41,184 nucleotides of DNA from a phage: the sequence record NC_093713.1. One strand, written 5' to 3'. A program made the position numbers and the translations under genes. Below, piece after piece: positions 9,214-34,622 of the stretch. Every line of letters begins with the position of its first letter. The stretch's first letter is position 1. Under the pieces are notes generated by a model, which was given only the letters and a program-made list of their open reading frames with translations, was not told the origin of the DNA and made no database searches.

Positions 9214-11501
9214 TATTTAAACCCCGGCGAGTTTCTTGTGGCTTTGCGGGCCTTGCTAATCTTGCTGTTGCTGTTCTGCAAAGAGGCAGCCACCTGCTCC
9301 TCGATGATGATTCGCAAACGGCCTTCATCATCCTGCTCAGTGGATACGTTGCCGATTTGAGAACTCGTGTTGTTTACGATAGTAACATTAGGCGGGCCGG
9401 AAGAAGACCCGTTTTGCCCCATAATTTCTTTCATCTGCTGTGCTGTGCGAACACGAGATGCGCCAGCAGGCATGATGACTTCTGGTTTACCGCGTTCTGC
9501 GATGGTGGAAGCCTGCCCTGCGGATAACTGTCCCCCCTGTTCACGCGCGGACCTGATAGCGGAAATCTGCGCCATACCCGCCCCAACGGCAGCGGCAGCG
9601 GCTACGGGGGCCAGGAACGGGCCAACTACAGGGATAGCCGCCGTTGACTTGTACGCCTCAATAGCTGCGGTGTACGTGGCTATAGTGGCCTGTACGATAG
9701 CGAATGCCTTGTACGCGCCAGAAGCCTCACCCAACGCAGACCCGATGTTTGAGGCCATGTTACCAAAGGCCGTTGCCGTTGCATCGGCACGTTTGGTTGC
9801 GTATTGCTCGTTGATGGCGTTAAGAGCGGCCTGATACTGCTTCTCGCTAATCAGCCCCTGTTCACGGTATTTATCAGCTACCGCCAGTTTCTGCTGTTCC
9901 TGGATGTCGAGAAGCTCAAGCTCAGTAGCGTTCTGACCCATAATCTGAGCCATGAAGTCGTCACCTTTCTGCTGCTTTTCCTGGGCTTCTTTCTGGCGTT
10001 TATCCAGTTCATCTTGCCGTTTTTGCCCGGCTTCGAGGACGATAGCTGTTTTAGCCTGTTCGTATTCTTTCAGCGACAGCGCGCCCTGGCTGTAGAACTC
10101 TTTTGCCTTAGCCAGTTTCTGCTGTTCCTGCGCGTCGATAGCCTTTAACTCATCGTTGTTCTGGCGAGCCAAAGTGTCGAGGTAATCCTGCGCCTGATTC
10201 CGCAATTGTTCTGCTTTCTTGGCGGCGGCTTTTGCCGCTTTATCGTCGGTGTTTCCTGCCCCGCCAGTTCCGCCCTTTTTATTAACAAGACTGGCTAAGT
10301 CAATTTCTTGCTTCTTGCGCTCGTCGTACTGCTTGCGCTGTTCCTCAATTTCTTTCTTACGCTGCTTAGACCTGTTGGTAATGGCCTGTGATTCTGCCTC
10401 TGCGCGTTTTATGCTAGCGGCGTACGCGGCGTCGGCCTCTGCGGTCAGGTTTTTAAATGTTAGCGCCGCCGTTTTGCTCGGGTCAAACACGTCGGCAAGG
10501 GTCTGCCCTAACGCTACAGCGTAATCGTCGATGCGCTGGAACCACGCAATAACCTCGTGAAATGTCTGCTGGATGTCCGGCAACCACTCACGGATGGCAT
10601 CCGGTATAGTCCCCAGCGAGTCAGACATATCAACGGATTTGTCCTCGGTATCGAATGCCAGGTCATTCAAGGCGTCGGAAATAAACTTGAATGACTCATT
10701 GAACAGCGCCACCCAATCCTGGAGCGTGGCGGCTATCTCATTAGACGCGATGGCGTCGGTAAGCGCCGTGATAGCGTCTTCCGCTGTGGCCGCTTGCTCA
10801 CCTACGGCGTCGCCAAAACCAGACTGCGCCACCGCAAGAACAAGACCGTCGAAGGAGTCGGCGAGGCTCGATAACTGGCCGTCTAGCGTCTTAGAGCGCG
10901 TCTCCATCGCCCCGGCAAAATCGGTGTTGCCGATATTCAGGAGGTATTTCTGAATCTCTTCGGAGTTCTTCTTAACCGTGGTAGTTACGCCGCGGAACGT
11001 GAACGAAACTGTATCTGCCTGTTGCGACGACTTGATGCCGAACTCTTTTAAGCGCTCAAATTCAAATGTACTGGCGTCGGCAACTGCCTCAATCATCTGA
11101 TTAAGGTCTTTACCCATAGCCGCCGCGGTGTTGCCGTAGGAGATTAACGCCTCTTTGCTGGGGTTCAGACCGAGCGCAACGAGCTTGGTAAACCCCTCTA
11201 CCGCCTGATTGAGACCGTACGGGGTCTCTTTTGCGAACTGTTGCAGGACGCTGAAAGCCTTAGCCGCGTTCTCGGCGCTCCCGGTCATCGTGATGAGGCC
11301 GGAGTTCAGCTTATCGAAGTTTCGCTGGGAATCCACCAGCGCGCTGAACACCTGCTTAGCGGTTTCCAGACTGACAACGGCGGCGGCGGCGGCCCCCGCC
11401 GCCTTGGTAAGCCCGTTCAGTTGTGATGTGGTTTTATCGACGCCGGTCGATGATACTCGTACTATCAAGCTAGCGGTATCAGCCATGATTTCTACCTTCA
11501 A
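9213..11501 (-). CDS. tail tape measure protein
   Basis: 762 aa, Ala/Gln/Glu/Lys-rich and helical in character, directly downstream of the tail chaperone pair; probable ATG start at 11486 with SD AAGGT (track start is TTG at 11501). Confidence 0.85.
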   Translation of the reverse strand: MKVEIMADTASLIVRVSSTGVDKTTSQLNGLTKAAGAAAAAVVSLETAKQVFSALVDSQRNFDKLNSGLITMTGSAENAAKAFSVLQQFAKETPYGLNQAVEGFTKLVALGLNPSKEALISYGNTAAAMGKDLNQMIEAVADASTFEFERLKEFGIKSSQQADTVSFTFRGVTTTVKKNSEEIQKYLLNIGNTDFAGAMETRSKTLDGQLSSLADSFDGLVLAVAQSGFGDAVGEQAATAEDAITALTDAIASNEIAATLQDWVALFNESFKFISDALNDLAFDTEDKSVDMSDSLGTIPDAIREWLPDIQQTFHEVIAWFQRIDDYAVALGQTLADVFDPSKTAALTFKNLTAEADAAYAASIKRAEAESQAITNRSKQRKKEIEEQRKQYDERKKQEIDLASLVNKKGGTGGAGNTDDKAAKAAAKKAEQLRNQAQDYLDTLARQNNDELKAIDAQEQQKLAKAKEFYSQGALSLKEYEQAKTAIVLEAGQKRQDELDKRQKEAQEKQQKGDDFMAQIMGQNATELELLDIQEQQKLAVADKYREQGLISEKQYQAALNAINEQYATKRADATATAFGNMASNIGSALGEASGAYKAFAIVQATIATYTAAIEAYKSTAAIPVVGPFLAPVAAAAAVGAGMAQISAIRSAREQGGQLSAGQASTIAERGKPEVIMPAGASRVRTAQQMKEIMGQNGSSSGPPNVTIVNNTSSQIGNVSTEQDDEGRLRIIIEEQVAASLQNSNSKISKARKATRNSPGFK

Positions 11502-11811
11502 AGATTGCTTCTAAGCCCATGATAATGTCTATCTCGAACAGGCTAAGCTGTTTTTGCGTAACATCGAGATAGGCTTTCAGGTCTTGCCACGTAACAGATT
11601 CTCTTGCAAACAATACTACAGCGTCCTCGCGCACGTGTCGCGTAAACTTAATGTCGCAATACGTCTCAAAGGTGGATATAAAAAGGGGCGGGCATTCTGG
11701 CCCACCCCGTCGCGCTGCACGTTTTTTCTTATCGATTACACCCATCGCGATAAGCGCCTGTTCGTGTCCGTCGGCGATAGAATCAAACTCTCTGATTTTA
11801 TGCTTATCCAC
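11479..11811 (-). CDS. tail assembly chaperone, T segment (probably expressed as a G-T fusion by -1 frameshift)
   Basis: ORF is in the -1 frame relative to 11844..12260 and is open from 11862, overlapping the last 6 codons of the upstream gene. Confidence 0.5.
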   Translation of the reverse strand: MDKHKIREFDSIADGHEQALIAMGVIDKKKRAARRGGPECPPLFISTFETYCDIKFTRHVREDAVVLFARESVTWQDLKAYLDVTQKQLSLFEIDIIMGLEAIFEGRNHG

Positions 11812-11843
11812 AAACTCGTAGGTGGCGAACCTGTACAGCGCGT

Positions 11844-12260
11844 CTACTTTTCCTGTAATGCTTTACGCTCGGCGTTATGGAACGCCGCCACCTGTGTACC
11901 TAATGCCTTGAATTGGTCGAGCAATTTGCTAAACGCTTCCTTAGAGAAAGGCTCGTCAAAGCTCCAGCCGTTTACTACTTCTGCCGCAAGTTGCCGGTTG
12001 AGGTCTTCTGCCAGTTCGTTAACCGCCAGGTTATATTCAGTATAATCACCAGAGTCTTTGGCAGCTTTTTCCAGTTCTTCAAAACGTGCCAGCCCGCGGC
12101 GGTACGCAATAATGAAAGCACGCCCCGCTTTAACGGCGGCATCCGCATCTGGATTTACAACGTTAAGCCACTCACCGGAGTCTTCGCCATTCGGCAGGAG
12201 AATCGGCATCTTCTTGCCCGCCAGTGCTTTCTCTTCGAAATAAAAATCAGAAAGTTTCAT
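11844..12260 (-). CDS. tail assembly chaperone (lambda G-like)
   Basis: 138 aa, immediately upstream of tape measure; SD AAGGA before the ATG. Confidence 0.55.
   Translation of the reverse strand: MKLSDFYFEEKALAGKKMPILLPNGEDSGEWLNVVNPDADAAVKAGRAFIIAYRRGLARFEELEKAAKDSGDYTEYNLAVNELAEDLNRQLAAEVVNGWSFDEPFSKEAFSKLLDQFKALGTQVAAFHNAERKALQEK
11847..11853 (-). promoter_or_regulatory. candidate -1 programmed ribosomal frameshift site (mRNA G GAA AAG followed by TAG)
   Basis: A-site AAG to AAA slip is possible at the last sense codons of the G-like ORF; downstream frame open for ~120 codons. Confidence 0.4.
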
Positions 12261-19518: not shown

Positions 19519-20196
19519 TTATCCTCGTTTGCCGTATTTGGCGTTAAGTTTTTGTTGAATTACGTCCGTACCACCGGCCCCGCCAGTAGAATTTTTGTTA
19601 CCGGAAGCCCCGCCGCCGGTTGCTGCATCTGCTTTAATCAGATGTGAGAATGCTTTGTGCTCACGCAGATACTTTTTAAATTGCTCTGCGTCGGTGGTGA
19701 TGACATTACCGTCCGCACCTGTGAACTTGGTCACAACGTCATCGCCGTCGAATTCGGTCTTGACCATCATAGCGATGATATCCGCTGCGCTCTCATCAAT
19801 CAACATTCCAGACAACTGGCTGATAACTGATTTACGTTCTGCGCCGAGGATACGCTCAGCCATTTTGCTAATCTTACCGTCCTTCTCGGCGAGAACTGGC
19901 TCATACTGACTGCGTAACGTTTTCTCGAATGCCTCAAGTTCGCCGTTCTGTTTTGCGCGTTCCTGTTCGGCTTTCAGCTTCGCATCTGCGGCTTCTTTCG
20001 CGGCAGCGGCGGCAGCTTTCTTTTCAGACAAGAGTTTCTCGTTGTTAGCTTTAAGACCGGATACCAGCGCGTCAACTTCTTCTTTGGTAAACGTGGTCTT
20101 AGTCTCTTGTTGTTCGATAGTTTCGTCTTTCACTTCTTCGCTCATCAGTATGTCCCCTGGACGTTGGAATCCGGGCCACCCGGATTTACATGTCAA
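19519..20196 (-). CDS. scaffolding protein
   Basis: Helical, charged, Ala/Lys/Glu-rich; probable ATG at 20145 (MSEEV...) with SD GGGGA; track start is TTG. Confidence 0.6.
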   Translation of the reverse strand: MTCKSGWPGFQRPGDILMSEEVKDETIEQQETKTTFTKEEVDALVSGLKANNEKLLSEKKAAAAAAKEAADAKLKAEQERAKQNGELEAFEKTLRSQYEPVLAEKDGKISKMAERILGAERKSVISQLSGMLIDESAADIIAMMVKTEFDGDDVVTKFTGADGNVITTDAEQFKKYLREHKAFSHLIKADAATGGGASGNKNSTGGAGGTDVIQQKLNAKYGKRG

Positions 20197-20224
20197 GAAT
20201 AAATTATTCCAACATACAAGGCAA

Positions 20225-20488
20225 CTATTCCAGAATATTCCTCACGTAATCCTGCAACATGAACACTTTAAGTCTCAGTTGCCGTACACATTCTGCGTTC
20301 TGGACGTCAATAGCTAAATCCTCGTCCGCGTCGTTACTCGGCAGTGCCAGTTTGCACGGCGGCTGCATCATCGTCGTATCCGGGGATGGAGTTGGCGTTT
20401 GCGACGGCGCGGGACTTAAGCTGCACGCGCTCAGGGTCAAAAGTGCACACGCTGCGACCAGGCGTTTTAATGTACTTAACGACTTCAT
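20225..20488 (-). CDS. o-spanin-like outer-membrane lipoprotein (Rz1-like)
   Basis: 87 aa; signal peptide with lipobox LSAC, then Pro-rich SLSPAPSQTPTPSPD; lies out of frame within the i-spanin region; SD AGAGGT. Confidence 0.6.
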   Translation of the reverse strand: MKSLSTLKRLVAACALLTLSACSLSPAPSQTPTPSPDTTMMQPPCKLALPSNDADEDLAIDVQNAECVRQLRLKVFMLQDYVRNILE

Positions 20489-20799
20489 GTGTAATTACCT
20501 CTGATTTCGTCTTGCCTTCGTTATCAGCGGCTGCGGCCTTCGACTCATCCTGCTGCTGCCGTTGTGTTTTCTTAGCTAACTCAGCCTCTGTTCGTGTTGT
20601 TATCAGCGGCTGCGGCCTTCGACTCATCCTGCTGCTGCCGTTGTGTTTTCTTAGCTAACTCAGCCTGTGCTTTCTGCTGTTGCTGCGAAACGAGATTCGC
20701 CCGGCCTCCGTTCCAGCCGCTGCTATACTGGTAGATGCCGTGTGCGTAAGCCAGGATGATGAAACATGCTCCCGCTACGACAGTTGCTTTAAGATTCAT
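20334..20799 (-). pseudogene. i-spanin (Rz-like) split into two frames by a 79 bp tandem duplication
   Basis: N-terminal fragment (20581..20799) has a transmembrane segment; C-terminal fragment (20334..20627) is in a frame offset by one; AELAKKTQRQQQDESKAAAADN is encoded by both repeat copies. Confidence 0.6.
20520..20677. repeat. tandem direct repeat, period 79 bp, two copies (68 bp identical core)
   Basis: GTTATCAGCGGCTGCGGCCTTCGACTCATCCTGCTGCTGCCGTTGTGTTTTCTTAGCTAACTCAGCCT at 20520 and 20599. Confidence 0.85.
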
Positions 20800-21049
20800 G
20801 TTTCCCCTTTCTCGATAAGTAAAGCCCCGCCTTAAAGCGGGGCGCTAGTCCTTATCATTTAAACATAGAAACGGCGTAATCTCAGTAAACCAGTTACTTT
20901 TTACACAAGCAATATAGTATGGCCCTTCCGAACGCGTCAGCGCAACTACACTCGGACTTAACGTCCGGCTCCGTTACCTGCCGCGCCGCGGTCGCTTGTT
21001 CATACTTCACAAGCTCAGGTGGAGCTTAGCACATTTTTGGTGAAAAGTC

Positions 21050-21065
21050 AACTATTCGAATAGTT
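21050..21065. promoter_or_regulatory. perfect 16 bp palindrome AACTATTCGAATAGTT in the intergenic region upstream of the spanin-scaffold-capsid block
   Basis: Contains the same GAATAG/CTATTC half-sites as the promoter element but everted; adjacent to a TTGACT hexamer on the - strand. Confidence 0.4.
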
Positions 21066-21113
21066 TACTCCAACATTTACAATTGAGTGGAATAACTGGA
21101 ATAATCACAGGCA

Positions 21114-21137
21114 CTAAAAAGCCCCTTTCGGGGCTTC
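21114..21137 (-). terminator. rho-independent terminator
   Basis: GCCCCGAAAGGGGC stem followed by TTTTTAG on the - strand, after 21141..21602. Confidence 0.6.
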
Positions 21138-21140
21138 AGT

Positions 21141-21602
21141 TTATTCTGGCTTAGTAACCTTCGCCGCTTTACTGACGGCCTCTACCCCATCGGCATCGGT
21201 GACTTTAACGAAGTATTCACCGACAGCATTAACCGTCAGAGACAAAGCCTCTTCTGGGGCGTTTACCACTTCCTTGCTGTCTTTGTACCAGGTCAGTACA
21301 CACGGCGCTTTACCCGCCTTAACTTCGACGGTGATGGTGGCGCTACCGTCGACCAGCTCGGTGTCTTTCGGTTGCACCGAGAAATACACGTCACCTGCAT
21401 CCGCCAGATACGGAATTTCATAAAGCATGCCCGCCGCGGGTAACGCAATACCGGTTTTATCTGCAAACGGCATATCGTCTTCGGGTGTACCGAGTACACT
21501 TTCATCATCAATAAACACCACGTTCTCACCAGAGCCAGACACGCGGGCGTACTGGACTACGCGACGTGACGGTACATCAGTTACTTTGAAAAAGCCCATC
21601 AT
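21141..21602 (-). CDS. Ig-like domain protein (possible head decoration or minor capsid protein)
   Basis: 153 aa; C-terminal segment PCVLTWYKDSKEV...GEYFVKVTDADG typical of Ig-like domains; start overlaps upstream stop. Confidence 0.45.
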   Translation of the reverse strand: MMGFFKVTDVPSRRVVQYARVSGSGENVVFIDDESVLGTPEDDMPFADKTGIALPAAGMLYEIPYLADAGDVYFSVQPKDTELVDGSATITVEVKAGKAPCVLTWYKDSKEVVNAPEEALSLTVNAVGEYFVKVTDADGVEAVSKAAKVTKPE

Positions 21603-24219: not shown

Positions 24220-25470
24220 TTAAAGTGCGAAAGTCACGGGGATGTTGATTACTGGTTTAACAACCGGCATCTCGTAAACTACAGGATAGCCGAGGGCATC
24301 CGCCATATGGTCAATGATGCCGTCTTTAGCTGGCTCTCCGTTATCGTCGTATGCCTGCTGTTCCAGCGTCTTTGCTATCTCAGGGCATAAGTGGTCGTTA
24401 ACCCACAGCTTACCTTTTTCCAGTGCGGTATTCACGGCTAAAACACGGTCTTTAACCGGAGGGTTGGCGGATTTAGCGCGAACATCGAAACCTGCCTGCT
24501 GGAGTAACGCAATATCTGAGATTGACGCCGAGTTGGTCTTGCGGTTCTTGCCGCTGGCGTCCGGGTAAACGACTATGCGGTGGCCCTGCGACTTCCACTT
24601 CTCAGTAATTACGCGCACGGTATCCGGTGTATCGAACAGGCCTTTCAGTTCTGCTACCGCGTGCCAGCCGTCTTTACGTTGCACATACACGGCGCTTGCG
24701 TTCTTCGTAACGTTGAAGTCCTGCCCGATGTACAACGTGTCGCCCGGTTGAATTACCTCTTTGCTGCGGTGCTTACGGCGGTCATATGCGTAATACACGC
24801 TGCCGGAGGTAAGGTTGACGAACTCACCATTCAGATACGCGTTAATCAACTGCGCCGGATAAGTCTCGGTCAGCGAACTAATGTAGTCAGGTGGCAGGAA
24901 TCGCGCGTTCTCGTGTGTAGAAGCCTGCACCATCGAGTAACTCGGCGTCGGGTTCTCTTTGAACTTGGCGTAGACGAACTTGAACCCTTCCGGTGTCGTG
25001 GTGACAGAGATGTGGTTAATTACGCCAGGAATAACAAGACGCATACGGGCCACAATTTTGTTCCACGCCAGTTCAGCTTTCTCGCGGCTCAATACATCCA
25101 GCTCATCCACGACTGCCGCAGCGATTTTGAAGCCGACGATAGAGCCTGGGTTATCCATCGAACGGCAGATAACAGTTCCGAGAACCGTCTTACCGCGAGT
25201 AACCACGACTTCTTTGTCGCCAGATTTAACCAGCACATCGAGGCCGAGCAGGTTAGCGGCTTCCTCAAATGTCGGGTAGAAGATGTCACGGATAGCCGGG
25301 TATGTCGGGCCGAAGTAACCCAGGCGCGTACCTGGATGCTTGAGCATAAACGTAAGCAGGTCAAGGCAGCCAACAAATGTCTTTCCGCTGCCGAAGCCGC
25401 CGACATATGCCTTATATTTGTTATCACAATTCAGGAACAGCGCCTGCGGTGCGGATAGCTGAATACTCAT
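24220..25470 (-). CDS. terL: terminase large subunit
   Basis: 416 aa; Walker A GGFGSGKT and Walker B AAVVDELD; overlaps TerS stop. Confidence 0.85.
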   Translation of the reverse strand: MSIQLSAPQALFLNCDNKYKAYVGGFGSGKTFVGCLDLLTFMLKHPGTRLGYFGPTYPAIRDIFYPTFEEAANLLGLDVLVKSGDKEVVVTRGKTVLGTVICRSMDNPGSIVGFKIAAAVVDELDVLSREKAELAWNKIVARMRLVIPGVINHISVTTTPEGFKFVYAKFKENPTPSYSMVQASTHENARFLPPDYISSLTETYPAQLINAYLNGEFVNLTSGSVYYAYDRRKHRSKEVIQPGDTLYIGQDFNVTKNASAVYVQRKDGWHAVAELKGLFDTPDTVRVITEKWKSQGHRIVVYPDASGKNRKTNSASISDIALLQQAGFDVRAKSANPPVKDRVLAVNTALEKGKLWVNDHLCPEIAKTLEQQAYDDNGEPAKDGIIDHMADALGYPVVYEMPVVKPVINIPVTFAL

Positions 25471-26315: not shown

Positions 26316-26470
26316 TTGAAGAAACCATCCTTGACAAGCTGACGGTATAGTTTAGCTGCGTAACGCTCTGCCTGGCCTTTGCGCCGAAATATTTTCCCAT
26401 TAACTGAATACTTATTTAACTCTGGCTCGTACCAAACTTGGTTGTCGATGAACTCCAGAATACTAATCAT
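26312..26470 (-). CDS. small protein (52 aa), hypothetical
   Basis: Hand-translated MISILEFIDNQVWYEPELNK...; ATGA coupling at both ends. Confidence 0.4.
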   Translation of the reverse strand: MISILEFIDNQVWYEPELNKYSVNGKIFRRKGQAERYAAKLYRQLVKDGFFK

Positions 26471-26703
26471 TCCCCACTCCCCTCTTTAGCAATACGTTGC
26501 TCTGTTTTAGTAATACCCCGGCGCGTGAATAACACCGGGCTTGTCTTAACGTGCGTCATCAGACGATTGTTATAAATTACGTGGCGCTCGCAATCGACGT
26601 CTTTGCTGTACTTCGCAATCGTCATTTCGTTGATGCCGGTTTGTCTGCATGTCTCAGCCATCGTGCCAAATTCTTTAATCAGGTTCGGAATGCTGGTAAT
26701 CAT
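26467..26703 (-). CDS. small HTH-like protein (78 aa)
   Basis: ATG at 26703 overlaps upstream stop; MAETCRQTGINEMTIAKY resembles an HTH; the track ORF (to 26727) uses a GTG in the same frame. Confidence 0.45.
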   Translation of the reverse strand: MITSIPNLIKEFGTMAETCRQTGINEMTIAKYSKDVDCERHVIYNNRLMTHVKTSPVLFTRRGITKTEQRIAKEGSGE

Positions 26704-26876
26704 CCTAAAAAATTCCTCGTTGTCCACATCGCATTCGGATATTTATTATCACGGTCCTGTACCACAGCAATCATGTTTCCGCGTTGCACCAGGCAGAAGT
26801 GCCGTTGTTGTTCACCGTTGTAGCGACGCCAGATTGCTTCTTCGATTGCCGCATTAATGTCACTGAACATAATCAT
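26700..26876 (-). CDS. small protein (56-58 aa), hypothetical
   Basis: Hand-translated MIMFSDINAAIEEAIWRRYNGEQQRHFCLVQ...; ATGA coupling to both neighbours; overlaps the GTG-extended track ORF in another frame. Confidence 0.4.
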   Translation of the reverse strand: MIMFSDINAAIEEAIWRRYNGEQQRHFCLVQRGNMIAVVQDRDNKYPNAMWTTRNFLG

Positions 26877-27055: not shown

Positions 27056-27299
27056 ACGCTTTACCGCATTTTAAGCATGTGACTCGATGCACCCCATCAA
27101 CTAAATGCAGGCGGTAATCATGCTCGCAGGCGTTCATCTTTTCCTCTTCTCCTCTCAACAACATGAGAAGAACCTTAAATGCGGCTAACTGGTACTCACC
27201 GTTAATCGACAGTTGCCCGCCTAGCGTCTGTTTCTCCGACTCAAGCACCAGAATACGGCGCTCGAGCGATGCGATTGTGATTTTAGGCATTGGTATCAC
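27042..27299 (-). CDS. small protein (85 aa) with C/H cluster, possible zinc-binding
   Basis: CEHDYRLHLVDGVHRVTCLKCGKAYG. Confidence 0.4.
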   Translation of the reverse strand: MIPMPKITIASLERRILVLESEKQTLGGQLSINGEYQLAAFKVLLMLLRGEEEKMNACEHDYRLHLVDGVHRVTCLKCGKAYGVD

Positions 27300-27471
27300 C
27301 TTTGTTCAGGTTGAAGCGGTTAATAAGTTCGCGGCGTTGTTCCATGAGGATGTCTACTTTATTAGCGTAGTAAGTAATCATCTGATCGAGACAGGCAATC
27401 TGGCTCTCCCCACCTGCGGCGGGTTTCAGGGCTGCTGCGACACATGCTTTTTCGTATTCGTTGTTAGTCAT
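27283..27471 (-). CDS. small protein (62 aa), hypothetical
   Basis: ORF track; overlaps neighbours. Confidence 0.4.
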   Translation of the reverse strand: MTNNEYEKACVAAALKPAAGGESQIACLDQMITYYANKVDILMEQRRELINRFNLNKGDTNA

Positions 27472-29229: not shown

Positions 29230-29523
29230 TTATTTATGTCTCCAGATGTATTGGCGTCTCTGCGGTTTCGTCGGAATATCATCGTATCCCAACGATTTCC
29301 AGTAATTAAATAGCCGATTAGCGATTGCTGCGCGTTCCTGTGTTTTAAACTCACCGAGATTCACAGCCTTCCCGTTCTGGAATCCACAGGCGCGGACCGC
29401 TTTGCGTCTGGCCTGAATCTCGGGGTACAGTGCATTACGGCGGCGCTTGTGTATACGCGTATTCGCTCTCGGCGACAGCGGCGCAAGGCCGCTTCGTTTC
29501 AGGATGTCAGTTGCTAACGACAT
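29230..29523 (-). CDS. basic protein (97 aa), hypothetical
   Basis: ORF track; TAATG overlap with the upstream gene. Confidence 0.4.
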   Translation of the reverse strand: MSLATDILKRSGLAPLSPRANTRIHKRRRNALYPEIQARRKAVRACGFQNGKAVNLGEFKTQERAAIANRLFNYWKSLGYDDIPTKPQRRQYIWRHK

Positions 29524-29744
29524 TATTTCTCCTGTTTACCAAGTCGCTTAGGTGAGCAGATAGCGCGTACCTCCGAATCGTTGGGCTTGTCGCCCTGAAA
29601 CAGGAAGTGCGCGTTCTCTGCGGCGCGTGCCGCTGACTGGCACGCCTCCATCGAGTAAAACGTTTCTGATGCCGCCAGATGCATCTGACCCGTGGACAGC
29701 ACCCAGATAAATAAGATGCTGGTCATCAGAAGTATTCCCCACAC
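29523..29744 (-). CDS. small protein with N-terminal hydrophobic segment (secreted or membrane)
   Basis: ORF track; MTSILFIWVLSTG hydrophobic N-terminus, two Cys. Confidence 0.35.
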   Translation of the reverse strand: MWGILLMTSILFIWVLSTGQMHLAASETFYSMEACQSAARAAENAHFLFQGDKPNDSEVRAICSPKRLGKQEK

Positions 29745-31516: not shown

Positions 31517-31545
31517 TTGATTTCCCATTATTCGCAATGTATACT
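31517..31545 (+). promoter_or_regulatory. sigma70-like rightward promoter (TTGATT-N17-TATACT)
   Basis: Hexamers ~30 nt upstream of the HTH regulator gene. Confidence 0.5.
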
Positions 31546-31577
31546 TGGTTTCGTTAACTGATAATGGGGGTTTGAGA

Positions 31578-31748
31578 ATGACACAGAATGAAGTAGCCGA
31601 GCGTATTGGGGTTACCCGTCGCACGCTGAATAACTGGTTAAAGAGTGGGAAGTTCCCGGATTGTTGTATCCGTATTATGGGCCGCCGGCAGCCGGGTACT
31701 TTCGACCCGGAGAAAGTGGAAGCGTGGATTAAGGAGAATGTAAAATGA
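31578..31748 (+). CDS. small HTH DNA-binding regulator (AlpA / excisionase-like)
   Basis: 56 aa from the ATG preceded by GGGGGT; VAERIGVTRRTLNNWLKSGKFP HTH; the track ORF begins at an upstream TTG. Confidence 0.55.
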   Translation: MTQNEVAERIGVTRRTLNNWLKSGKFPDCCIRIMGRRQPGTFDPEKVEAWIKENVK

Positions 31749-34555: not shown

Positions 34556-34622
34556 GTGAATAGTACCATATTAATTATTTTAGAAAAGCCCATTGACAAC
34601 GTGAATAGTTCGCTATTATAGT
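34556..34622. promoter_or_regulatory. divergent promoter region with two copies of the conserved palindromic element
   Basis: Rightward TTGACA-N18-TATAGT overlapping GTGAATAGTTCGCTATTATAGTT; second, degenerate copy TGTGAATAGTACCATATTAAT toward the repressor gene, whose own -35 is poor. Confidence 0.55.

Follow-up and report, generated by a model that had tools for sequence, protein, structure and literature searches.

A perfect 16-bp palindrome ahead of the spanin genes in a Kagunavirus genome and the conserved GGAATA repeats that overlap it

Background

Does a perfect palindrome ahead of a block of phage lysis and head genes mark the operator of a dedicated regulator, or is it part of a larger control element? 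The question is raised by sequence record NC_093713.1, a stretch of 41,184 nucleotides (nt) that was analyzed over its whole length (the window) and that represents a complete or near-complete genome of a Kagunavirus (Guernseyvirinae). A palindrome of 16 base pairs (bp), AACTATTCGAATAGTT, lies there in a 341-bp non-coding gap (20800-21140). On the minus strand, the gap is bounded by the stop codon and terminator of a gene for a Hoc-like protein on one side and by the start of an Rz-like spanin gene (20799) on the other. An earlier note on this DNA, made from the letters alone, had described the palindrome as perfect and free of a spacer, had placed it in an intergenic gap that follows a terminator and precedes the spanin-scaffold-capsid block, and had pointed to an adjoining minus-strand TTGACT. 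It had proposed either a second binding mode for the regulator of a promoter element with the same half-sites or the site of a late-gene regulator. The descriptive parts of that account are borne out here, the gene order by the annotation of the relative K1ind1.

Guernseyvirinae (Kagunavirus, Jerseyvirus) are among the most often isolated phages of Escherichia coli and Salmonella, and they are used both as candidates for therapy and as synthetic-phage chassis. In the literature, no paper was found that maps Guernseyvirinae promoters or regulators. We propose, with a probability of roughly one half, that the palindrome belongs to a conserved array of GGAATA operator sites, which accompanies a divergent extended -10 promoter with a structured leader.

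Results

Taken alone, the palindrome is not significant, because about 0.7 such sequences are expected per genome by chance. First-order Markov simulations gave 0.74 perfect palindromes of at least 16 bp per genome, and 52% of the simulated genomes held at least one. The identical 16-mer was also found in four unrelated contigs of IMG/VR, two of which resemble coding sequence. Palindromes of at least 12 bp are depleted about threefold in the genome (4 observed vs 11.6 expected), which is consistent with restriction-site avoidance. The earlier note had suggested conservation in relatives as a check, and close relatives do retain the palindrome: it is perfect in ~29 of 33 distinct sequences of the Kagunavirus type, as well as in 33 Guernseyvirinae stretches from IMG/VR. 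The variants within the Kagunavirus type (L004, L005, L007, L030 and L041) are changes of a single arm without compensation in the other. The left arm is absent from the homologous sequences of Jerseyvirus (TACTTTTTGAATAAAG), phiEap-2 (CACTTTTGGAATAATT) and Cornellvirus SP031 (CACTTTTTGAATAATT), and the palindrome is therefore specific to the Kagunavirus type.

The palindrome is composed of the three central bases (N3) and one arm of a conserved inverted repeat, a 5-nt linker, and the initial TT of the -35 hexamer of a predicted late-strand promoter (TTGACT, 21051..21046), so that palindrome and hexamer share 2 bp. It spans -34 to -49 of this promoter, and its centre is at -41.5 when the start is taken as 21016. 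The late-strand sequence of the Kagunavirus type is TATTC-G-AATAG-TTGACT, against TATTC-(A/C)-AAAAG-T(A/G)GA(C/T)T in the other lineages. The 6 bp that separate the repeat arm from the -35 differ by two substitutions ((A/C)AAAAG to GAATAG), which account for an extra GAATA beside the conserved arm; a suitable N3 (AAC) and the initial TT of the -35 complete the 16-bp symmetry. We regard the palindrome either as an extra hexamer site for the same factor that would bind the repeats or as a neutral by-product, and not as an independent operator.

The 15-bp inverted repeat that the palindrome overlaps is conserved in all four lineages compared, namely the Kagunavirus type, Jerseyvirus, phiEap-2 and Cornellvirus SP031. 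Its arms are constant and its N3 varies (GTT, AAG, ATT or CTT). The window itself reads CGAATAGTTTACTCC, with a private T-to-C change at 21068; the IMG/VR sequence IMGVR_UViG_3300045988_018086, whose Hoc-like protein is 93% identical, has TATTCC for the TACTCC of the window. The centre of the repeat at 21064 lies at -48 of both flanking promoter elements, and a spacer of 16-17 bp separates the repeat from the direct repeat GGAATAAYTGGAATA. The second unit of the direct repeat and the next two bases form TGGAATAAT (21097-21105), an extended -10-like element on the plus strand.

Clusters of these sequences, defined as at least four GAATA/TATTC pentamers per 60-bp segment, occur in the 41-kb genome only at 21053-21103 and 20197-20240. 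Among 500 simulated genomes, a cluster of at least four arose in 5 and a cluster of at least five in none. In K1ind1 and in the Jerseyvirus-type genome Ent1, the only clusters are those at the two homologous places, and phiEap-2 has both of these and a third at 11501-11537. SP031 has the cluster upstream of the spanins and one in the start of o-spanin; its scaffold-upstream element is kept as a reduced copy, which persists despite an antisense gene inserted between o-spanin and scaffold. The cluster scan detected no GGAATA cluster in the Serratia relative Tsm2. An everted TATTCC-N9-GGAATA in the portal gene was discarded as a candidate, being accounted for by conserved codons (IIPSQMEY).

The repeats keep a fixed distance to promoter-like sequence. 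In all four lineages, the late strand carries the repeat, 5 nt, TnGAyT, 17 nt ending in TGn, and TAnnCT. No lineage departs from the TG or from T, A and T in the -10; the spacer and the third base of TGn vary. Because this footprint (TnGAyT-17-TGnTAnnCT) is conserved at fixed spacing, it is read as an extended -10 sigma-70 promoter, with TG at -15/-14, T at -12, A at -11, T at -7 and a -35-like hexamer always at 17 bp. In the PVP-SE2 record, too, a promoter is annotated at this spot, independently of the present analysis. Late-strand promoter activity from ~21016 is a prediction from sequence. The extended -10 elements of the two strands are mirror images in the Kagunavirus type, Jerseyvirus and phiEap-2, each lying 38.5 bp from the repeat centre, and the status of the antisense site as a promoter is uncertain. 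An informal, by-eye comparison with host-factor consensus sequences (IHF, CRP, PhoP, CpxR, IclR, RcsAB and the GGTATA repeats of NanR) found none that fits.

An insertion hotspot adjoins the direct repeat. In most relatives, a variable insert of ~165-800 bp starts immediately after position 21103 (GGAATA); the window and about a quarter of the relatives have no insert at 21103/21104. The insert holds an antisense gene, which is not the same in all relatives; the gene has an early-type promoter (TTTGCA..AATAGGGTACTATTC) and a ribosome-binding site of its own, and its product is annotated as RusA-like/'sliding clamp', methyltransferase-like or a small hypothetical protein. The antisense promoter-like site is intact in all insert-free genomes, its -10 or TG is often broken in insert-bearing genomes of the Kagunavirus type, and its -35 is absent in phiEap-2 and SP031. 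In phiEap-2 (11501-11537 and 11841-11886), an antisense insert gene and a bidirectional terminator lie between inverted repeat-plus-direct-repeat modules, in the manner of terminal inverted repeats. The record of Salmonella phage SG102 (ON540301.1) has its boundary inside the array, between ...ACTTTT and TGAATAAAGTATTCC..., at the equivalent of the palindrome centre; this is probably an arbitrary assembly break.

The transcript that would start at 21016 has a conserved structure in its predicted leader. When folding was compared with that of shuffled sequences, the minus-strand RNA (21016..20800) gave z = -2.4 and the plus strand z = -1.2. Compensatory changes were seen in at least three leader helices. 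A long-range helix is GGCGCG/CGCGUU in 25 distinct sequences and GGUGCG/CGCAUU in 11. The hairpin just 5' of the spanin ribosome-binding site keeps its stem by compensation as CCCCGC/GCGGGG, CCCGGC/GCCGGG, CCCUGC/GCAGGG or CCCGAC/GUCGGG, and an apical hairpin occurs as GGAC/GUCC, GUGC/GCAC, GGGCGC/GCGCCC or GGGCGU/ACGCCC. RNAalifold gave a poor consensus on an all-lineage MAFFT alignment, in which the helices differ in sequence and register, and hand-defined helices were used instead. In the formal count for two helices, from which the apical hairpin was left out because it could not be scored in one register, 96.4% of the cells were paired, vs ~42% with slid partners; five pairs had changed on both sides, and none of 500 shuffles reached the observed score. 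Two G-U pairs are conserved, which favours the RNA of the late strand as the functional one, and the unpaired CGGAAGGGCC (20921-20930) is invariant in the leader. The hairpin before the ribosome-binding site resembles a terminator in the Kagunavirus and Jerseyvirus types, with an 8-pair stem and the tail TTTACTT in Kagunavirus; the homologous hairpins of phiEap-2 and SP031 are without a U-tract.

The second cluster (C2) overlaps the final codons of o-spanin, and its direct-repeat hexamers also encode the end of that protein (RNILE-stop). It lies ~50 nt upstream of the likely start of the scaffold gene, the ATG at 20145 rather than the TTG at 20196 given by the open reading frame (ORF) tool. 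A hairpin between C2 and the scaffold ribosome-binding site shows compensatory changes in Jerseyvirus (ACACCGGG/CCCGGTGT), phiEap-2 and Tsm2.

The half-sites GAATAG and CTATTC are indeed common to the palindrome and the repeated early-type element, TGAATAGT-N4-CTATTAT(AGT), which lies on the plus strand between a TTGACA-like -35 and the -10. Its core, AATAG-N4-CTATT, occurs at six sites (12385, 30305, 31114, 34604, 36750 and 40763), where ~0.04 would be expected by chance (41184 x 4^-10), and a degenerate seventh copy, GAATAGTACCATATTA, lies at 34558. The core is palindromic, and several copies therefore resemble promoters on both strands. The element matches the PHIRE motif tgAATAGTa-ccTATTat-T of Kagunavirus fBC-Eco01, which was published as a phage RNA polymerase promoter (PMC9825357). 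That reading is doubtful because no phage RNA polymerase was found in the annotations examined for this phage group.

The geometry of the two elements differs. The early element is convergent (GAATA-N6-TATTC, with the core AATAG-N4-CTATT), lies inside the -35/-10 spacer and overlaps the -10; the palindrome (CTATTC.GAATAG) is everted without a spacer and lies upstream of the -35, which it overlaps, and the conserved repeat GAATA-N3-TATTC that overlaps the palindrome is also upstream of the -35. The looser pattern ATAG-N4-CTAT was counted 7 times in the window, 4 times each in Ent1 and Tsm2, and once each in phiEap-2 and SP031, and SP031 has no copy with full AATAG/CTATT arms. GGAATA arrays are present in the window, Ent1, phiEap-2 and SP031 but not in Tsm2; the early element is present in Tsm2 and nearly absent from phiEap-2 and SP031, the reverse of the arrays. 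Because geometry and lineage distributions both differ, the second binding mode of an early-promoter regulator that the earlier note had put forward is disfavoured, and the palindrome and the early-type promoters probably do not share one regulator.

On correlative grounds, a NinH-like helix-turn-helix protein, a putative Fis mimic of 86 amino acids (aa), is the best candidate for binding the GGAATA sites. It falls in phrog_268, and several GenBank records name its homologues NinH-like. Identity of its ORF among the four array-bearing lineages is 59-69%, and no homologue was detected in Tsm2 or in any Serratia phage record. When 22 small ORFs were compared with five genomes by tblastn, four were apparently present in the array-bearing lineages and not in Tsm2. 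One of these, a DUF2737 ORF, was then found in Tsm2 by Pfam, and among the remaining three only the NinH-like protein has a DNA-binding signature. Neither phiEap-2 nor SP031 has the early helix-turn-helix protein (Pfam HTH_17, 31545..31748), and the small terminase subunit is only ~30% identical across lineages though the hexamer is invariant. A search of PDB sequences with the NinH-like protein gave no meaningful match. The NinH protein of lambda, a Fis-like dimer, bends DNA, and its preferred site is a 15-bp palindrome of the form G-N13-C (PMC7166090). A 15-bp dyad with outer G and C (-7/+7) and an A+T-rich core is complete in phiEap-2 and PVP-SE2 (GGAATAATTTATTCC, GGAATACTTTATTCC).

Table 1. 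Coordinates of the palindrome and of associated features in NC_093713.1
Feature	Position	Strand	Remarks
Perfect 16-bp palindrome AACTATTCGAATAGTT, no spacer	21050-21065		
15-bp inverted repeat (G/T/C)GAATA-N3-TATTCC	21057-21071		Arms fixed and N3 free in four lineages; overlaps right half of palindrome
Direct repeat GGAATAAYTGGAATA (GGAATAACTGGAATA)	21089-21103	+	Conserved in all four lineages
-35 hexamer TTGACT of predicted late promoter	21046..21051	-	TAGACT, TGGACT, TGGATT in other lineages
Extended -10 TGC-TAAGCT of predicted late promoter	21023..21031	-	17-nt spacer; predicted start ~21016
Antisense promoter-like site TTTACA-18-AATAAT with TG	21076..21105	+	Faces insertion hotspot and terminator
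Predicted 217-nt structured 5' leader of spanin transcript	20800..21016	-	Compensatory helices
GC-rich hairpin GCCCCGC-TTTAAG-GCGGGGC just 5' of spanin ribosome-binding site	20824..20843	-	
Cluster C2: GGAATATTCTGGAATAG, 14 nt, GGAATAATTTATTC, then TTGACA	20196..20241	-	
Hairpin AATCCGGG-TGG-CCCGGATT between C2 and scaffold ribosome-binding site	20168..20186	-	
Bidirectional hairpin terminator 3' of Hoc-like gene	21119-21136		Stem kept in relatives
86-aa NinH-like helix-turn-helix protein	26467..26727	-	Candidate GGAATA binder, by inference

Discussion

From the sequences and their conservation, spacing and clustering, and from the covariation in the RNA, all of which were observed directly, we infer a promoter activity, a bound protein, a candidate for that protein and a direction of regulation as follows. 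A host sigma-70 extended -10 promoter on the minus strand would transcribe the spanin-scaffold-capsid block by way of the 217-nt structured leader. The inverted repeat at -48, exactly midway between the late promoter and the mirror antisense element TGGAATAAT, and the direct hexamer repeat would offer hexamer sites to a dimeric DNA-binding protein, which may balance late-strand against antisense (insert gene) transcription. This protein could be the NinH-like one. In a bolder version, which we hold to be quite improbable, a NinH-like Fis mimic with the GGAATA arrays as its natural targets would occupy the central repeat and the hexamers beside it and switch the divergent pair from antisense to late, and the leader would be a cis-acting RNA, put-like or of a new type, for read-through of the intrinsic terminators scattered over the head-tail operon. 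The late-regulator site proposed in the earlier note survives insofar as a site for a regulatory protein is plausible upstream of a promoter that is conserved in the subfamily; the conserved unit is the overlapping GGAATA-N3-TATTCC, and not the palindrome.

Several observations weigh against a GGAATA operator array read in this way. C2 has no recognizable -10, which means that the arrays cannot be taken simply as parts of promoters. The -10 hexamer of the predicted late promoter is weak (TAAGCT), and the promoter call depends on TGn and on conservation. The only RNA-seq paper on a Kagunavirus, a temporal study of K1B4 (PMC12645636), is resolved to genes and places those on either side of the gap both in the 'middle' class; it was set aside as promoter evidence, being too coarse to reveal a promoter there. 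Among sequences of the Kagunavirus type, variation in the columns of the palindrome is not lower than in the adjacent conserved blocks. The NinH-like protein scores 23.4 bits (E 5.8e-5) against PF06322, below the gathering threshold of 29.8, and its Ent1 homologue scores 20.5 bits. Its link with the arrays depends on one lineage, Tsm2, that is without both, and the small ORFs 27283..27471 and 29523..29744 share its pattern of presence and absence. The outer G/C of the dyad stands at one end only in the Kagunavirus type, most Jerseyvirus (Ent1-type), SP031 and C2. Fis and NinH sites have pyrimidine-purine steps at -4/-3 and +3/+4 (PMC7166090), whereas the T-A steps of the repeat are displaced from these by 1 bp, to -3/-2 and +2/+3. 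Klebsiella phage HSE3 has a NinH-like protein and no GGAATA clusters, a comparison that is uninformative at 49% identity.

Could the palindrome itself be the operator? It would then be specific to the Kagunavirus lineage and would stand at a class II position, where a dimeric regulator, perhaps the early protein that recognizes GAATAGTT, would activate or repress. The centre at -41.5 overlapping the -35 suits such a role, as does the perfection of the palindrome in ~29 of 33 sequences of its type and in the 33 IMG/VR stretches, and both of its halves are the 8-mer GAATAGTT that is also present in the early-type elements at 34603 and 36749. We nevertheless consider this unlikely, for the palindrome is absent in Jerseyvirus, phiEap-2 and SP031 despite the same promoter, repeat and spacing, and one dimer could not bind the everted, spacer-less form and the convergent N4 form alike. 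Moreover, the Kagunavirus type has the best -35 (TTGACT) of the lineages and thus the least need of a class II activator, the single-arm variants are uncompensated, the early element and the arrays differ in lineage distribution, and ~0.7 palindromes of this length are expected per genome by chance. Another alternative is that no dedicated regulator exists and that the GGAATA sequences are elements of RNA polymerase recognition (extended -10 elements TGGAATAAT/TGGAATAGT and UP-like A+T-rich sequence), with repeat and palindrome incidental to back-to-back promoters. Both TGGAATAAT and, in C2, TGGAATAGT can be read as extended -10 elements, the two promoter-like elements of the gap are mirror-symmetric, and the A+T-rich repeat of C2 directly abuts TTGACA. 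What makes this improbable is that the arms, including the outer G/C, are conserved around a variable 3-bp centre, the signature of a dimer site and not of an UP element, and that insert-bearing Kagunavirus-type genomes often lose the plus-strand -10 or TG yet keep GGAATA. In addition, phiEap-2 and SP031 are without the plus-strand -35, C2 of phiEap-2 has two repeats 33 bp apart and no -10, and the clusters are confined to a few sites in five genomes, many other promoters notwithstanding.

The hotspot raises a further alternative, in which the arrays are boundaries of exchangeable cassettes with a recombinational or architectural role, as insert ends or as a pac or replication site. The inserts begin exactly after GGAATA at 21103 in most relatives, the phiEap-2 insert is flanked by inverted repeat-plus-direct-repeat modules, the antisense gene of SP031 was inserted beside C2, and the GenBank record of SG102 begins within the array. 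The arrays are, however, intact in insert-free genomes and have no associated transposase or recombinase, and their fixed spacing to the promoter favours a transcriptional role. A packaging site or genome end was rejected and is kept as a low-probability rival only: PhageTerm found no fixed ends in a Kagunavirus, the genomes of related phages are circularly permuted (PMC9825357, PMC9409062), and only one or two of ~450 records break here. We judge cassette boundaries to be very unlikely and retain the GGAATA operator array as the best explanation.

As a type of element, the control region is ordinary, although some of its details are new. It resembles the extended -10 sigma-70 promoters of enterobacteria and their phages in the TG before TAnnnT, the 17-bp spacing and the variable -35-like hexamer, a weak -35 being tolerated in both. 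It differs from them in the weak -10 core (TAAGCT, TACGCT, TAACCT), in the fixed upstream repeat at -48 and in the long structured leader, and its promoter is a predicted one. With the sites of Fis and lambda NinH it has in common a 15-bp dyad that has an A+T-rich core between outer G/C, the presence of several sites upstream of a promoter, and a NinH-like gene that tracks the arrays; in contrast to them, its steps are shifted by 1 bp, its G/C is mostly one-ended, its direct hexamers form no dyad, and the Pfam score lies below the cut-off. The PHIRE motif of Kagunavirus shares the hexamers GAATAG/CTATTC with the palindrome, but its arms converge on a 4-bp spacer, and it is located inside the -35/-10 interval of early-strand sigma-70-like promoters, whereas the palindrome is everted and lies upstream of a -35. 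The dyad sites of Mu Mor/C and P2 Ogr (TGT-N12-ACA) are likewise found in the -40 to -55 region of late promoters. Those promoters, unlike the one described here, have no usable -35 and depend on an activator; here the Kagunavirus-type -35 and TGn are adequate, the sequences are unrelated, and no Mor/C-like or Ogr-like protein was found among the small ORFs scanned.

In lambda, late control is laid out as PR'-qut-6S RNA-tR', and HK022 has put RNA. The gap resembles these by layout only, in that a constitutive-looking promoter and a leader of ~200 nt, structured with covariation and closed by a terminator-like hairpin, stand ahead of lysis and head genes. It departs from lambda late control in that no Q-like protein was identified here and that the hairpin of phiEap-2 and SP031 is without a U-tract.

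To our knowledge, the biological role of lambda NinH is not known. The control region offers a testable candidate function for NinH-like proteins and a candidate structured leader RNA, and its definition provides targets for engineering, including the natural insertion hotspot 21103/21104. If the NinH switch were true, it would be the first biological function for the NinH family, and the leader would be a new class of RNA in Guernseyvirinae. The palindrome itself adds little, as a lineage-specific feature of this region.

Flanking genes and minor features

The minus strand carries the late and structural genes, in the order large terminase (25470..24220), the portal, a gp7-like head morphogenesis protein and the 153-aa Hoc-like protein (21602..21141). 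Downstream of the gap follow the Rz-like spanins, the scaffold and the major head protein. The closest relatives are UTI89UKE1, with 98.6% identity over the 1.2 kb round the gap and 98.0% over the gap, and K1ind1, for which the values are 97.8% and, over the gap alone, 98.5%. In 180 GenBank phage records (Escherichia, Salmonella), the segment 20800-21103 is 94-99% identical, and the surrounding 1.2 kb is mostly 90-95% identical, i.e. the coding DNA is less conserved than the gap segment. In Jerseyvirus, the flanking genes are ~70% identical and the gap can still be aligned in conserved blocks.

A coding function of the gap was rejected: its ORFs have only 20-38 aa, and 1-nt indels occur within them among relatives. 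Rfam 15 had no match at gathering score in the gap, only chance-level matches with E above 1, and ARAGORN found no tRNA there. Some records of Jerseyvirus list a 'tRNA-Ser' that overlaps both the terminator and the last part of a coding sequence; it is probably a false call.

The i-spanin gene of the window contains a perfect 79-bp tandem duplication (20520-20666; 1.9 copies). The resulting frameshift leaves two ORFs in place of the gene, one of 72 aa (20581..20799) and one of 97 aa (20334..20627), which could reflect a real spanin-defective variant or an assembly artefact. The relatives have a single i-spanin gene of 128 aa, and the region is shorter in them by 79 bp.

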